A stretch of 64,000 nt of DNA from a virus (Duplodnaviria; Heunggongvirae; Uroviricota; Caudoviricetes). Under the pieces are notes generated by a model, which saw only the letters and a program-made list of their open reading frames with translations, searched no databases and had not been told where the DNA came from. The stretch is from positions 103,998-167,997 of the IMG/VR virus record IMGVR_UViG_3300049215_000227. The stretch is one strand, 5' to 3'. This document shows, piece after piece, positions 22,566-60,702 of the stretch (positions are counted from its first letter, which is position 1; every line of letters begins with the position of its first letter). The position numbers and the translations under genes were made by a program.

Positions 22566-22755
22566 CGTTCACAGCTCGGTAAGTCACGTCACGTTCGTGG
22601 CGGACTACTGCCCCAACACGTTCGAGGTGAACGGGGTACAAGCTGAACATAGCGGTCATGAATTGCCTCCAACAGAAGTCTGGATGGAGAACGCTCTCAG
22701 TCACGCGCGTGACTTGATGAGGAGAAAAGTCGAATGCCAATCAAGGGAGTCTTAA
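22537..22755 (+). CDS. hypothetical protein
   Basis: 72 aa. Confidence 0.35.
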   Translation: MAKIRFKGTNVHSSVSHVTFVADYCPNTFEVNGVQAEHSGHELPPTEVWMENALSHARDLMRRKVECQSRES

Positions 22756-23939
22756 ACAAAGCCCGTGTACCAGTCAAGATCTGGTCTGACATTTCCACTG
22801 TGGAAAGCGCTGCGTTGGATCAGCTCACCAACACAGCAAACTTGCCATTCGTCTTTAAGCACGTTGCGGCCATGCCAGACGTGCATCTCGGCAAGGGAGC
22901 AACTGTTGGATCTGTTATTGCTACTAAAGGTGCTATCTGTCCGGCAGCCGTCGGAGTTGATATCGGCTGCGGGATGGCAGCAGTACGTACCGACTTGGAC
23001 CCAAACGTCGTCCGCGACAAGATCACAGCAATCCGACTCTCGATTGAAAGGTCAATACCAGTCGGTCACGAAGGCAATAATAAGCTTACAAAGTCCGTCG
23101 AGCAGTGGAAGCTCTGGCAAGACTGGCAAAACCTAACCGTTATTGGTCACAACTCTTCAGACACAGCCGACATGTACAAGCGCGCTCGATCGCAGCTTGG
23201 CTCGTTGGGTGGAGGCAATCACTTCATTGAGATCTGCCTTGATACTCAGGACAGAGTGTGGGTGATGCTGCATTCTGGCTCCCGCAACGTGGGTAAGGTT
23301 GTCGCTGAGCGCCACATCGATAAAGCTAAGGACCTCATGAAGACAATGTTCATCAGTCTTCCTGACCCTGACCTAGCGTACTTTGCTCAGGGAACCCAAG
23401 ACTTCCAGAACTATCTGGCTGATCTTGAGTGGTGCCAGGAGTATGCTGCTCAGAACCGCAGGGAGATGATGCAGCGCGTTCTTAAGGATCTCAGCTACGC
23501 CGTGTACGGCGAGGACGGTCAGATCAACACTGATGTCAAGGTTAACTGCCACCACAACTACGTATCGAGGGAAGCCCACTATGGAGAAAACGTCCTCGTC
23601 ACAAGAAAGGGTGCTGTCAGAGCAAGAGAAGGAGATCTTAGTATTATCCCTGGTTCCATGGGTACTCGCTCTTACATCGTACGGGGACTTGGCAACCAGG
23701 ATTCGTTTTGCTCGTGCAGTCACGGTGCCGGCCGCGCAATGTCTCGTGGCGAGGCTAAGCGTACTTTCACTCTCAAGGATCTCGAAGAGCAAACTCGAGG
23801 GGTCGAATGCAGAAAGGACGAGGGAGTGCTTGACGAGATACCAGGAGCTTACAAGCCGATTGATCAGGTTATGGCAAACCAGACGGACCTCGTTGAAGTC
23901 CTTCATGAGCTACGACAGATAATGTGTATCAAGGGATGA
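22734..23939 (+). CDS. rtcB: RtcB-family RNA ligase (3'-phosphate/2',3'-cyclic phosphate RNA ligase)
   Basis: 401 aa with GGGNHFIEIC, CHHNY, and metal-binding His residues in RtcB order. The length is typical. Confidence 0.8.
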   Translation: MPIKGVLNKARVPVKIWSDISTVESAALDQLTNTANLPFVFKHVAAMPDVHLGKGATVGSVIATKGAICPAAVGVDIGCGMAAVRTDLDPNVVRDKITAIRLSIERSIPVGHEGNNKLTKSVEQWKLWQDWQNLTVIGHNSSDTADMYKRARSQLGSLGGGNHFIEICLDTQDRVWVMLHSGSRNVGKVVAERHIDKAKDLMKTMFISLPDPDLAYFAQGTQDFQNYLADLEWCQEYAAQNRREMMQRVLKDLSYAVYGEDGQINTDVKVNCHHNYVSREAHYGENVLVTRKGAVRAREGDLSIIPGSMGTRSYIVRGLGNQDSFCSCSHGAGRAMSRGEAKRTFTLKDLEEQTRGVECRKDEGVLDEIPGAYKPIDQVMANQTDLVEVLHELRQIMCIKG

Positions 23940-24075
23940 TATGAGAGATTATCTTCGAGTGTTCCTAATTGGAGTTTTGATCGCCATGGTGCTTGGCTAC
24001 ACCTTGCTCATGGGTCTTGAGATCATGTCAAAGTTTCTGTCTGTAATCATAAGTTATCAAATGTAAGGAGAAAAT

Positions 24076-24288
24076 ATGAGAGCGATTCTTTTCGTAGTGG
24101 TCTTGTTGGGATTGGTCGGTTGTGCTAGCACTCAGGTTACTGAGTACAATCAAGGTTGCCGTGACGGCGTAGCTGATCGCGCCGGCCGCTCGTTCACCAG
24201 TGAAACTGAGTTGAACAACTACTGCGACTTGAAAGACGCGCAGCATCGCCGCAGCGAGCGTATGATCGAAGGACGCAGCCGAAACTAA
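24076..24288 (+). CDS. small lipoprotein
   Basis: MRAILFVVVLLGLVGCAST lipobox. Confidence 0.45.
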   Translation: MRAILFVVVLLGLVGCASTQVTEYNQGCRDGVADRAGRSFTSETELNNYCDLKDAQHRRSERMIEGRSRN

Positions 24289-24701
24289 TGTTTTGGAGAA
24301 AGCCCAAGGAAGTTCCAGTTGAAGTAGAAAAACTAGAACCTGAGCAGCATTTAGAATACGACGAGATGACGTTTGATGTGGGCGTCACCACGGTGCTAGT
24401 TATATTCGACGACAACAGAGAAGTCCATACTAAGATATACGGTGAAGTTGACCAATACGTTGACTATCCCAGTTATGGACGAAAAACTTACAGGGTTAAC
24501 ACTCCATCCATATGGACGTCCGAAGAAAAGTATCGGCATTGGTTGCAGCATACTAAGCCAGACGAGTTTGTTAAGGTTCTCGACGACCCCATGACGCCAG
24601 AGATAGCGTGGTGCGGTAGGATCATCCACCTGGAAAAGGTGGAGACTCAAAAGCATGAGATTAAATACCAAGTTGCTCGCATCGTAGAGGGTAGCAAATG
24701 A
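24288..24701 (+). CDS. hypothetical protein
   Basis: 137 aa. Confidence 0.45.
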   Translation: MFWRKPKEVPVEVEKLEPEQHLEYDEMTFDVGVTTVLVIFDDNREVHTKIYGEVDQYVDYPSYGRKTYRVNTPSIWTSEEKYRHWLQHTKPDEFVKVLDDPMTPEIAWCGRIIHLEKVETQKHEIKYQVARIVEGSK

Positions 24702-25141
24702 TCGTTTACAAACAGGGAGATCTGCTTGCCAATCTTGAAGAGAAGCGTATCGCTCATGGGTGCAACTGCTCAGGCGGATTCGGAAGTGGCTTTGCGAAAC
24801 AAGTGTCTGAGCTTTATCCGAGCGTCCGAGAAGCCTACTTGCATAGGTTTAATACTAGAGGGTGGAAGCTCGGAGAGGTACAGATTCTGGGCGTCGGTGA
24901 CGGTTCAGGAAGAGAGATTGCTAACTGTGCTACCCAGCAGCGCTACGGTAAGCCAGATGAAGGGCCTTACGTCTCTTATCCTGCTATTAGACAAGTTATC
25001 CGTGACCTCTCCAACTCCTGGCCGGGTGGTTTTGCCATTCCCAAGATTGGAGCAGGTCTCGCTGGAGGTAACTGGGAAATCATTGAGCGAATTATTCAAG
25101 AGGAGTCAGGATCAGTAGAAGTTAGAGTGTACATCCTATGA
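24698..25141 (+). CDS. macro-domain protein (OARD1/TARG1-like ADP-ribose hydrolase)
   Basis: IVYKQGDLLANLEEKRIAHGCNCSGGFGSGFAKQV matches the TARG1-type macro N-terminus (GDLF...HC.S.D...G.GIA). Confidence 0.55.
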   Translation: MIVYKQGDLLANLEEKRIAHGCNCSGGFGSGFAKQVSELYPSVREAYLHRFNTRGWKLGEVQILGVGDGSGREIANCATQQRYGKPDEGPYVSYPAIRQVIRDLSNSWPGGFAIPKIGAGLAGGNWEIIERIIQEESGSVEVRVYIL

Positions 25142-25270
25142 AACTCTGGATTCTGATCTTATCTGTTCTCGTCGCGGGATGCACAGTGGTTCGCATCAAC
25201 GTCATGACTTATTGTCACACGAAGGACGGCTATTACCTGATAGACGACCCTCACTGTCAGGAGAAGAAGG

Positions 25271-59391: not shown

Positions 59392-59400
59392 CCATCCTTT

Positions 59401-59415
59401 CCCCGATCGTATAAT
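59401..59415 (+). promoter_or_regulatory. promoter-like motif A (CCCCGATCGTATAAT)
   Basis: Copy of motif A, 18 nt upstream of ORF 59433 (RBS GGAGGG). Confidence 0.45.
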
Positions 59416-59432
59416 CCTCCATCGGAGGGTTT

Positions 59433-59717
59433 ATGAAAGTAAAATCAACAAAGACAATCAAGGTCCTTTCGCGCAATCTGGAGATTACCAAAACTCCTAA
59501 GGAGCGCAACATCAATACTCGCAACGTGAGCATCAGCGAGGCAGAGAAGAACGAAGTCAACGTTAACGACACGGTTCACCTGCGCGTGTGCGACGTTGGC
59601 GGCAATCTCGTCGCTGAAGCTACCTACACGGGCAAGCAGTTCCACTCGCAGCTCGTAGCTCGTCAGAAGCAAACTAAGTACGGAAGCGTCATCAACTTTT
59701 ACACCCTGGGCTACTAA
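59433..59717 (+). CDS. hypothetical protein
   Basis: 94 aa. Confidence 0.45.
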   Translation: MKVKSTKTIKVLSRNLEITKTPKERNINTRNVSISEAEKNEVNVNDTVHLRVCDVGGNLVAEATYTGKQFHSQLVARQKQTKYGSVINFYTLGY

Positions 59718-60073
59718 TGGACAAGCTGCCGGAGGCATCCGTCAAGAAGCAACTCTTCTGGACCAACGGTTGCTTTCGCAAGGCGCTATTAGATCACTTT
59801 GGCCACAGACTCACGGACAAGCAGAAGCGATACAACCTTATTGAGCTCAAACGTCACATAGAGACCAAGCTCAACGAGAAGATAAGGACGCCAGAGATAA
59901 ACGCGACGTACATGAAGTATGTCCTGCAGATGCCCACCAAGAAGCTCGAGCTGATCATACGGGCTAACAAGACTGGACAGCAGTTCCGAAGCGGGGAAAC
60001 CATAGATAGGATCATGACCGAGCTCATGGAACGCTCGATGGATCCCGAACCGAAGGAGACACATGAGTCCTAG
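59717..60073 (+). CDS. hypothetical protein
   Basis: 118 aa. Confidence 0.4.
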   Translation: MDKLPEASVKKQLFWTNGCFRKALLDHFGHRLTDKQKRYNLIELKRHIETKLNEKIRTPEINATYMKYVLQMPTKKLELIIRANKTGQQFRSGETIDRIMTELMERSMDPEPKETHES

Positions 60074-60198
60074 AATCAATTTTTGGGTTTGCGCAGTTTG
60101 CACTCTGCTGAACGTGTTTAGTTTCTTGACGACTGGAAGTCTCATCAGTCTCTTCTTTGCCGTCTTCTGCGGATACGGAGTCTACCAGCTGAGGCGCT

Positions 60199-60702
60199 AT
60201 GCCTGAGAAGGTTCGCCTCATCAACGATCCCGTGCTTCGCCAGAAGTGCGCGCCTGTCAACGCTCTTGACATGGTGTTCATCTTAGGTCTTCTCGACACG
60301 ATGCACGAGACCATGGTAGCAGAGCAAGGTATCGGTCTCGCCGCAAACCAGATTGGTCACTCAGTTCAAGTGTTCATCCTGAAGCGAGACGATACGTACG
60401 ACGAGTTCATCAACCCAGAAATTCTTTCTCAAGAGGAGCTGATTGACTTTGAGGGCGAAGGTTGTCTCTCCATCCCTGGAACGTCTGGCACCACCAAGCG
60501 CTATCGTAAGTTGCGACTTAAGTGGCAAGACAAGCACGGACACTTTAAGGAGGACGACTTCGCAGACATGCGGGCGTTCGCGGTACAACACGAGATGGAC
60601 CACCTCAACGGAAAGCTCTATGTGGATCAGTTTGGTCCCATGAAGCGCACGTTGGTGCTGGACAAGCATAAGAAGTTTTTGCGGGAAGCGAGGAGACGAT
60701 AA
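60199..60702 (+). CDS. def: peptide deformylase
   Basis: All three PDF motifs in order: GIGLAANQIG, EGCLSIPG, HEMDHLNG. Confidence 0.75.
   Translation: MPEKVRLINDPVLRQKCAPVNALDMVFILGLLDTMHETMVAEQGIGLAANQIGHSVQVFILKRDDTYDEFINPEILSQEELIDFEGEGCLSIPGTSGTTKRYRKLRLKWQDKHGHFKEDDFADMRAFAVQHEMDHLNGKLYVDQFGPMKRTLVLDKHKKFLREARRR

Follow-up and report, generated by a model that had tools for sequence, protein, structure and literature searches.

A compact RNase P RNA gene in the tRNA array of a large uncultured phage-like element with RNA repair and translation genes

The closest described counterparts of the locus discussed here come from jumbo and huge phages. In a survey of jumbo phages (Iyer et al. 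2021, PMC7824862), tRNAs, RNA ligases and Pth2 occur together with Macro, NADAR and NAMPT genes, and the whole is interpreted as a means to counter host attacks that target translation and NAD+. Peptide deformylase (PDF), release factors and transfer-messenger RNA (tmRNA) have been reported for huge phages (Al-Shayeb et al. 2020, PMC7162821). We have analysed a stretch of 64,000 nt (the window) from the IMG/VR record IMGVR_UViG_3300049215_000227 (positions 103,998-167,997), which is assigned to the Caudoviricetes. A preliminary description of this window had proposed a translation rescue and RNA repair toolkit, in a region that extends from the start of the RtcB gene (22734) to the stop of the PDF gene (60702) and includes a large tRNA array. 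As first described, the toolkit is one more example of the known jumbo-phage pattern. The features shared with the jumbo and huge phage sets (PMC7824862, PMC7162821) are large tRNA complements, RtcB and/or Rnl, Pth2, PDF, release factors, tmRNA, and genes of the Macro/NADAR/NAMPT type. The most unusual part of the toolkit was absent from the preliminary description, and it is where the real interest of the region lies: a conserved compact RNase P ribozyme, which is encoded in the tRNA array and has counterparts in the same setting on other large viral contigs.

RNase P is a universal and essential ribozyme. In the literature that we searched, it is regarded as a strictly cellular or organellar enzyme. 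Full-text searches did not find an RNase P RNA encoded by a phage or other virus, nor did a review of RNase P from 2024 or the jumbo- and huge-phage papers of 2021 and 2020, consulted on this point, yield one. The latter two papers (PMC7824862 and PMC7162821) mention RNase P RNA zero times, whereas the window has one. With the coverage of the literature being incomplete, a virus-encoded RNase P RNA is probably newly described here. The nearest precedent is provided by two mycobacteria, Mycobacterium austroafricanum and M. sp. YC-RL4, which have extra divergent RNase P RNA copies (Behra et al. 2022, PMC9569102). These copies have an altered specificity domain, are located beside an endonuclease gene, and are thought to have been acquired horizontally. 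However, they come from bacterial assemblies, and no link to phages or tRNA arrays was made in that paper.

The RNase P RNA gene and the tRNA array

The RNase P RNA encoded in the window (for the coordinates of this and other features, see Table 1) is a compact molecule of the bacterial type A. Its match to the Rfam model (E 2e-47; gathering score 100) extends over positions 1-367 of the model in 304 nt, compared to a length of ~377 nt for the E. coli M1 RNA. The gene is separated by 3 nt from the preceding tRNA-Asn, and by 6 nt from the following tRNA-Ser. With the M1 RNA and the RF00010 type A model, it shares helices P1-P5, P7-P11 and P15-P18, the P4 pseudoknot with its bulged U, conserved regions (CR) I to V, and the GGU of L15. 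CR-I (GAGGAA...), CR-II (ACAGAGA), CR-III (GGGUGAAA) and CR-V (ACAGAACC) are present, and L15 has kept the sequence CGGGUA, of which the GGU pairs with the tRNA 3' CCA. The 3' CCA is encoded in 35 of the 35 called tRNA genes of the window, which fits a type A enzyme that reads CCA. In contrast to bacterial type A RNAs, the window copy resides in the tRNA polycistron of a phage-like element, lacks P13/P14 (a 43-position segment of the model is down to 2 nt), has a short P12 (4 bp with a GAAA loop), and contains an added P19-like hairpin. Its P4 sequence is heavily re-paired relative to the type A consensus: both strands deviate from it, yet they pair with each other (AC[U]UCGCGG with CCGCGGGU) and retain the bulged U.

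Copies of this RNA were found in related contigs, so that its structure could be assessed by covariation. The set comprised five distinct sequences from the window lineage, with 75-91% column identity, which were aligned by a covariance model built from the first copies; P4 and the P19-like hairpin were added by hand. P13/P14 are absent from all five family copies, and the bulged U of P4 is found in every one of them. Standard pairs occupy 95.7% of the cells. Changes on both sides of a pair occur in 37 of 90 pairs, compared to 2-5 in controls with the partners displaced by 1-3 columns, and none of 500 shuffles reached the observed pairing values. P4, which was outside the aligning model, has 8 pairs that are 97.5% paired, and 4 of the 8 covary. 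This signature points to a structurally constrained, functional RNA with its catalytic core kept (P4 with the bulged U, CR-I to CR-V, GGU of L15), and not to a decaying fragment of a host gene. The Rfam match could alternatively stem from a captured host rnpB fragment in decay, or from host DNA in a chimeric contig, and be functionless in either case. The loss of P13/P14 and the compaction to 304 nt from 367 model positions would be in line with this scenario, and some rnpB matches in IMG/VR and in GenBank "phage" records clearly represent host flanks. However, neither decay nor chimerism would explain the compensatory changes across five copies, the intact conserved regions and P4 bulge, the phage-type genes on the same contigs, the placement of the RNA directly beside tRNAs and on their strand, and the occurrence of the sequence in independent assemblies, and we therefore regard this alternative as highly improbable.

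The protein subunit of RNase P, RnpA, was not detected. The six frames of the window contain no RNR motif, and a phmmer search of the window and all fetched loci with E. coli or B. subtilis RnpA as the query did not yield a match (best E 0.32). As a cognate rnpA was not seen, the host RnpA is the probable partner; more generally, the RNase P RNA would use the host RnpA, a protein subunit whose gene lies in another part of the genome, or no protein at all.

Loci from other contigs that were fetched for comparison carry L numbers. Among contigs that encode homologs of the GGQ protein described below, the same RNase P RNA is present in the nearest relatives of the window (L008, L010/L011, L106/L107) and in the more diverged L108, and in all of them its gene is part of a tRNA array that precedes the GGQ gene. 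Altogether, it is found in the window and in four of the five distinct array-bearing relative loci (L005 being the exception), and in none of ~20 GGQ loci that have no array.

A scan of IMG/VR with a near-universal CR-I/P4 motif identified 48 contigs, 37 of which match the covariance model. The viral status of these contigs is IMG/VR's own call. Eleven of the contigs pass the RF00010 gathering score (108-300 bits) within tRNA arrays that have 3-27 tRNA genes per locus, mostly 14-27; their sizes include 100, 114, 155, 190, 363, 369 and 463 kb. A further contig of 168 kb with 15 tRNA genes (L122) has a covariance-model match at the contig end, under the Rfam threshold. The copies in the IMG/VR arrays are 269-415 nt long and have a GC content of 47-70%. 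The RNase P RNA is encoded on the strand of every tRNA in 16 of 16 loci examined, and in 15 of the 16, at least one of its two gaps to a neighbouring tRNA gene is no longer than 8 nt. L122 also encodes a short GGQ protein and a PDF, at an array that is unrelated to the one in the window. Three further RNase P-bearing arrays (L134, L144, L157) contain genes for NADAR and for a PrfH-like factor of ~195 aa, with domains 2, 3 and 4 and an intact GGQ motif. The corresponding open reading frames (ORFs) are located at 9597-10268 in L134, at 3978-4583 (-) in L144, and at 4241-5053 (-) in L157, and the contigs are of high GC content.

Other searches did not extend this distribution. A blastn search with the window copy found no relatives in GenBank phages. 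BLAST searches with the IMG/VR copies as queries matched only two GenBank phage records, and both were rejected. The rnpB-like match in "Microcystis phage MaAM05" (L241, MW495066.1 109323-121473) is surrounded by fliM, fabI, engB, glyS and mtgA, and the record appears to be at least partly bacterial DNA. The match in "Acinetobacter phage MD-2021a" is to a chromosomal rnpB that adjoins a prophage integrase gene, and thus also to bacterial DNA. The remaining IMG/VR matches were likewise discarded, as host rnpB genes next to prophages or as contaminated, several of them near contig ends with few tRNAs. Motifs specific for the lineage found one chance match (19-mer) or none (18-mer) in IMG/VR, and the 94 matches to the 18-mer in a metagenome scan were all local chance matches according to nhmmer and cmsearch.

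The tRNA array itself is encoded on one strand, with many spacers of only 1-12 nt, and with small ORFs and HNH genes in between. ARAGORN detects 31 tRNA genes in the window with default settings and 35 with relaxed settings, which add Arg-CCU, Ser-GCU, Glu-UUC and Trp-CCA. Cloverleaf folds support a further Ser-GGA gene at 49444-49533 and an Arg-UCU gene at 51226-51298, and an aberrant Tyr-like element and a truncated copy raise the total to ~39. The "about 40" tRNAs of the preliminary description are thus fair as an upper estimate. The set is nearly complete, with 18-20 amino acids represented. In view of the short spacers, RNase P is the main activity that can separate the tRNAs, with dozens of cleavage sites per transcript.

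Some elements of the array are unusual. In the tRNA-Tyr(GUA)-like element at 50148-50238 (+), just after the stop codon of the GGQ gene, the acceptor stem, anticodon arm, T arm and CCA are present, but a long-range stem of 7 bp, closed around the anticodon hairpin, takes the place of the D arm. The odd form is also found in L106, and a canonical tRNA-Tyr is present at the same place in L010 and L005. Fragments of tRNAs are located in the spacers at 49124-49225 and 58024-58080. One of them ends with a T arm and CCA, and the other is incomplete, matching Rfam with 36 bits over model positions 8-63, and has no acceptor stem; the fragments may be remnants of array turnover. The second HNH gene of the array is kept in L010, L106 and L108. 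By analogy with other phage tRNA regions, the HNH genes may encode homing endonucleases. A DenV-like pyrimidine-dimer glycosylase (52222-52680) and a ParB-like nuclease (55023-55589) are also encoded among the tRNA genes. Outside the array, a single, unusually long tRNA-Ile(UAU) comes after the NADAR gene.

Table 1. Positions of the RNase P RNA gene and other features in the window
Feature	Position	Strand	Length	Support
RtcB, RNA 3'-phosphate/2',3'-cyclic-phosphate to 5'-OH ligase	22734-23939	+	401 aa	PF01139 E 7e-132
NARP1-AP-like NAD+ reconstitution cluster (Macro-Adps-Namat)	24698-27564	+		profile and structure-sequence matches
Macro protein, candidate Adpp	24698-25141	+		Pfam Macro 2.7e-4
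Adps, Prs-like	25271-26101	+		ribose-phosphate diphosphokinase-like, under Prs cut-offs
Namat	26098-27564	+		9W5X/9W5W
NADAR ADP-ribose-processing protein	29782-30237	+		Pfam NADAR 6.9e-41; passes TIGR02464
Isolated tRNA-Ile(UAU), extra 7-bp arm in variable region	30397-30489	+	93 nt	ARAGORN, fold
Pth2, peptidyl-tRNA hydrolase of archaeal/eukaryal type	44282-44674	+	130 aa	PF01981 1e-31
PPP-family metallophosphatase of lambda NinI type	45111-45893	+	260 aa	PF00149 1.5e-15
tRNA array, 29 (strict) to ~37 genes, CCA encoded	48468-59394	+		ARAGORN, Rfam, folds
Compact bacterial type A RNase P RNA	48726-49029	+	304 nt	Rfam RF00010 153.2 bits
Small Zn-ribbon ORF	49539-49745	+	68 aa	cysteine pairs CxxxxC and CxxC
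Stand-alone GGQ (release-factor domain 3) protein	49811-50140	+	109 aa	PF00472
HNH endonuclease in array	51847-52206	+		PF01844 1.1e-6
HNH endonuclease in array	56093-56635	+		PF14279 3e-18
Peptide deformylase	60199-60702	+	167 aa	PF01327 4e-42

The GGQ protein and the RNA repair, NAD+ and translation genes

Four of the five protein assignments of the preliminary description (RtcB, Pth2, PDF and the PPP phosphatase) stand by profile search. The fifth, an ArfB-like ribosome rescue factor, does not. The ORF in question spans 49763-50140, and its probable start codon is the ATG at 49811. The resulting length fits the family, which consists of 135 database clusters, nearly all of 103-116 aa. The protein belongs to the release factor domain family PF00472 (54 bits, gathering score 35) and to phrog_3122, "RF-1 domain peptide chain release factor" (E 6e-23, residues 3-81). 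The GGQ motif (GDGGQ; G26, G27, Q28) is invariant in 47 homologs, and ~25 further positions are conserved or nearly invariant. In a sequence search of the PDB, the best match was domain 3 of RF2 (residues 234-292, E 1e-9), followed by RF1, PrfH (1e-6) and C12orf65 (3e-3), with no ArfB or ICT1 chain at E <= 0.01. With the ArfB equivalog model NF006718, the score is 27.5 bits (cut-off 100), and the alignment is confined to residues 5-39. The ranking by predicted fold is similar: with an AlphaFold (AF2) model of pLDDT 83 as the query, Foldseek gave 5e-6 for RF1/RF2, 8.5e-5 for PrfH, 0.025 for ICT1 and 0.039 for ArfB. The C-terminal third is predicted to form a long helix and a beta-hairpin. ArfB has a basic C-terminal tail that probes the empty mRNA channel, but the final 41 residues of the window protein contain 7 K/R and 8 D/E, for a net charge of about -1. 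Domains 2 and 4 of class I release factors are also missing, and the prfA, prfB and prfH models align to domain 3 only and score far under their cut-offs. The "ArfB-like" label should be replaced by "stand-alone release factor domain 3 GGQ protein". It is most likely a codon-independent peptidyl-tRNA hydrolase.

With respect to described GGQ proteins, the protein has several partial counterparts. The RF1 or RF2 proteins of huge and jumbo phages are of full size, whereas the window protein is a single domain. With ArfB (YaeJ)/ICT1, it has in common that it is a small GGQ-domain protein predicted to act independently of the codon, but it does not have their basic tail. The GGQ domain of PrfH is closer than that of ArfB by both sequence and fold, and as in the PrfH-RtcB2 rescue/repair module, a GGQ factor and RtcB are encoded in one genome. 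However, the window protein lacks domains 2 and 4 of PrfH, its gene is 26 kb from that of RtcB, and RtcB scores 162 bits, below the 272-bit cut-off of the PrfH-linked model TIGR03073. Another short GGQ protein, the mitochondrial mtRF-R (C12orf65), is able to act on split large subunits (PDB 7a5h); a partner similar to MTRES1 was not identified for the window protein. Homologs are present in 253 GenBank phage records, chiefly of mycobacteriophages of the Bixzunavirus type. The gp204 protein of mycobacteriophage ScottMcG belongs to the same family (phrog_3122; ~47% identity over residues 4-81), but its C-terminal third is different, and its gene sits amid replication genes and not in a tRNA array. 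The Bixzunavirus records are ~154 kb long, and these phages thus have large genomes, as is the case here. Bixzunavirus genomes are rich in tRNAs. To our knowledge, the phrog_3122 protein is uncharacterised in the mycobacteriophages and in the lineage of the window.

The small Zn-ribbon ORF between the RNase P RNA and GGQ genes had no match in searches with family profiles. It is conserved in L106/L107 and L108 only, where it overlaps the start of the GGQ gene. As it is kept only in the nearest relatives, and unrelated small ORFs take its place in others, it was rejected as a partner of the GGQ protein.

The RtcB protein matches PF01139 over its full length (profile positions 1-426 of 426). Alignment to the P. 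horikoshii enzyme (1uc2) shows that all active site residues are retained, namely D65, D95, C98, N202, H203, H234, H329 and the H404 nucleophile (P. horikoshii numbering), which comprise the metal-binding, GMP-binding and nucleophilic positions. We infer that the enzyme seals 3'-phosphate or 2',3'-cyclic-phosphate ends to 5'-OH ends in a GTP/Mn-dependent reaction. RtcB homologs are present in 702 phage records. The 137-aa ORF after RtcB has no family match and was dismissed as an archease or other RtcB partner.

Directly downstream of RtcB, the window contains a cluster that fits the recently described NARP1-AP pathway of NAD+ reconstitution. The putative Namat matches the structures of the phage Namat (9W5X/9W5W; PMC12774641) with E 1.6e-162, compared to ~1e-58 for NAMPT, and is nearly as near to the solved phage enzyme as is possible for a family member. 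The stop codon of Adps overlaps the start of Namat. The same Adps-Namat pair with an adjoining Macro protein, here directly upstream, is known from NARP1/NARP1-AP (Osterman et al.; PMC12774641), and a role of a Macro protein in the NARP1-AP pathway has been described (bioRxiv 10.64898/2026.01.28.702374). The order is Macro-Adps-Namat in the window, but Adps-phosphatase-Namat in Vibrio phage Gary. The Macro protein, which has the DarG macro domain as its top NCBIfam match (1.5e-9) and a weaker Pfam match, is a candidate Adpp only. Together with NADAR, the cluster provides circumstantial support for an anti-defence reading of the region, as established or proposed counter-defence genes.

The Pth2 protein passes TIGR00283 with 112.3 bits (cut-off 82), matches the M. 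jannaschii Pth2 (2zv3) over residues 4-130 with E 6e-28, and has kept the GKMVAQG and DAG contexts. A hydrophobic, membrane-like ORF of 147 aa (44671-45114, +) sits between the Pth2 and phosphatase genes. The phosphatase has the motifs GDVHN (with N instead of the last G of GDxHG), GDLVDRG and GNHD, and matches phrog_246 (NinI-like Ser/Thr phosphatase) with 3e-28 over residues 14-257. RLPH2 is first in its PDB ranking, followed by PP1, and weaker similarity is seen to ApaH, PrpE, Pnkp and phosphoesterase domains fused to RNA ligases. The enzyme may act on proteins. Alternatively, by analogy to lambda phosphatase and Pnkp, it may act on RNA 2',3'-cyclic-phosphate ends. In PDF, all three motifs are present (GIGLAANQ, EGCLS, HEMDH), and the score for TIGR00079 is 123.9 bits (cut-off 103.95).

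The window as a whole has a GC content of ~50%, and its long ORFs are nearly all on the plus strand. Other products encoded in it are two ClpP-family proteases (15076-15906 and 33932-34762 (-)), a subtilase (16657-17706), a trypsin-like protease (17753-18457), a VTC-domain protein (46509-47420) and an SPFH/Band 7 protein (31323-32681). A MoxR-like ATPase (36088-37242) is paired with a DUF2201 VWA/metallopeptidase protein (37267-38733). A megablast search with 24 kb found no close phage relatives in GenBank, and identity for a conserved ATPase is less than 31%; the lineage is one without a close cultured relative.

A possible role of the region

On balance, the region is probably that part of the accessory genome with which a large uncultured phage-like element maintains translation, and would constitute a largely self-contained line for the making and salvage of tRNAs. 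The tRNA array would be transcribed as long polycistronic precursors. The phage RNase P RNA, probably together with the host RnpA, would then cut at the 5' end of every tRNA, and because of the short spacers, these cuts would nearly complete the 3' ends of the upstream tRNAs. The cut at the downstream tRNA-Ser would free the 3' end of the ribozyme itself, and the mRNAs of interspersed ORFs would also be released. RtcB would reseal tRNA or rRNA whose cleavage has left 2',3'-cyclic-phosphate and 5'-OH ends. The GGQ protein may hydrolyse peptidyl-tRNA on stalled ribosomes or subunits independently of the codon, Pth2 may recycle dropped-off peptidyl-tRNA in solution, and PDF may mature the nascent chains. 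The net effect would be to free phage protein synthesis from the tRNA pool and the tRNA processing of the host, whether the pool is lost to defence nucleases or to the phage's own shut-off of the host. Either of the two may represent the main selection.

The preliminary description had interpreted the genes as a means to keep translation running against host defences that target tRNAs or ribosomes. Judged by gene content, this is plausible. Circumstantial points in its favour are the NARP1-AP-like cluster and NADAR, and, in relatives, tmRNA, Rnl with RlaP, and HD_4. The tmRNA is encoded in L004 (7521-7930, Rfam 90 bits), between an Adps-Namat-Macro cluster and a GGQ gene whose product is 82% identical to that of the window; this locus has neither a tRNA array nor an RNase P RNA. 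The Rnl-type RNA ligase with RlaP is found in L005 and L007, and the HD_4 hydrolase in L108.

The same genes could also serve translational self-sufficiency, outside of any defence context. A phage with a long cycle that shuts down the host or degrades its genome would flood the cell with tRNA precursors; the RNase P RNA, PDF, Pth2 and the release-type factor would add capacity or clear overload, and RtcB would mend incidental RNA damage. The nearly complete tRNA set is in agreement with this idea, as are the short spacers that leave dozens of cleavage sites to RNase P, and the RNR and ThyX nucleotide-supply genes, which are also located in the window. Moreover, PDF and release factors of huge phages have been taken as a boost to translation (PMC7162821). 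However, the chemistry of RtcB suits nuclease-cut ends, the counter-defence genes are close by, and the relatives hold further repair and rescue items. The two readings are compatible, but self-sufficiency as the sole explanation seems rather unlikely to us.

Whether the genes form a toolkit at all can be judged from their linkage. The Pth2 gene is followed by the phosphatase gene, adjacent or overlapping, in L008 and L106/L107. The array, GGQ, HNH and PDF genes are present in the same order in L010, and the grouping of tRNA array, GGQ and PDF recurs among L008, L010 and L106. As it recurs in related contigs, the grouping is not a one-off, although shared ancestry accounts for much of the recurrence. 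In other relatives, the neighbourhoods are reshuffled: the GGQ gene adjoins NARP1 genes in L004 and L009, and the RNR, ThyX and PD-(D/E)XK nuclease genes in L109. The five proteins could thus be products of independent accessory genes in a variable, ORFan-rich arm, and the array with the RNase P RNA, and perhaps GGQ, could be the only real module. The shuffled order in L004, L009 and L109 would be expected in this case, and so would the scatter of the genes over 38 kb with unrelated functions in between, including the large distances from RtcB to the rest. In contrast, the conserved adjacency of Pth2 and phosphatase, the array, GGQ and PDF genes side by side in L010, and GGQ with PDF again in the unrelated L122 would be left unexplained. 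The same is true for the GGQ or PrfH-like ORFs in four independent arrays, those of L134, L144, L157 and L122, with the RNase P RNA of the last identified by the covariance model only. We consider the absence of any coordination improbable.

A number of observations nevertheless weigh against a translation-maintenance region. The genes do not form an operon, because unrelated genes are dispersed among them over 38 kb; the distance from RtcB is 20 kb to Pth2 and 25 kb to the array, and genes for SPFH, ClpP, the MoxR-like ATPase with VWA/metallopeptidase, VTC, the DenV-like glycosylase and the ParB-like nuclease intervene. Counts of promoter and terminator signals in a scan of the window were not above the expectation from shuffled sequence. 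The GGQ protein has neither a decoding domain nor an ArfB tail with which to reach the ribosome, and the efficiency of the ribozyme in vivo is uncertain, because P13/P14 are absent and RnpA was not found. In L005, 14 tRNA genes are present without an RNase P RNA in the 20 kb fetched. The majority of the window ORFs are without known relatives, and a PHROGs search with the ORFs near the window ends, nearly all of which were unmatched, identified no virion genes in the window. The status as a phage therefore leans on gene content and relatives. Assignment of a host via the genome collection was rejected, since full-length matches to the GGQ protein occur in metagenome-assembled genome bins of unrelated phyla, which are probably mis-binned.

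A wider generalisation is conceivable, which we put forward tentatively. Large phages with tRNA arrays may encode their own RNase P ribozyme as a unit of the polycistron, to be released by the processing of the tRNAs. The ribozyme may have been acquired or kept in several lineages, with a reduced specificity domain in some copies, and often together with a minimal or PrfH-like GGQ protein. The reduced ribozymes may work with the host RnpA or without protein, making the tRNA supply independent of the host RNase P. Such an arrangement would be previously undescribed.

If true, the presence of a viral RNase P RNA in tRNA arrays would add a catalytic RNA to the parts of the translation apparatus that are carried by viruses. 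The copies of 269-325 nt without P13/P14 would represent natural minimised type A RNase P RNAs for structure-function work. The 109-aa GGQ family, which has more than 130 clusters and also occurs in mycobacteriophages, offers a tractable system for a candidate new mechanism of peptidyl-tRNA hydrolysis that does not depend on the codon. Finally, an RNase P ribozyme of their own would be a concrete reason why phage tRNA arrays work at high expression, or under host shut-off.

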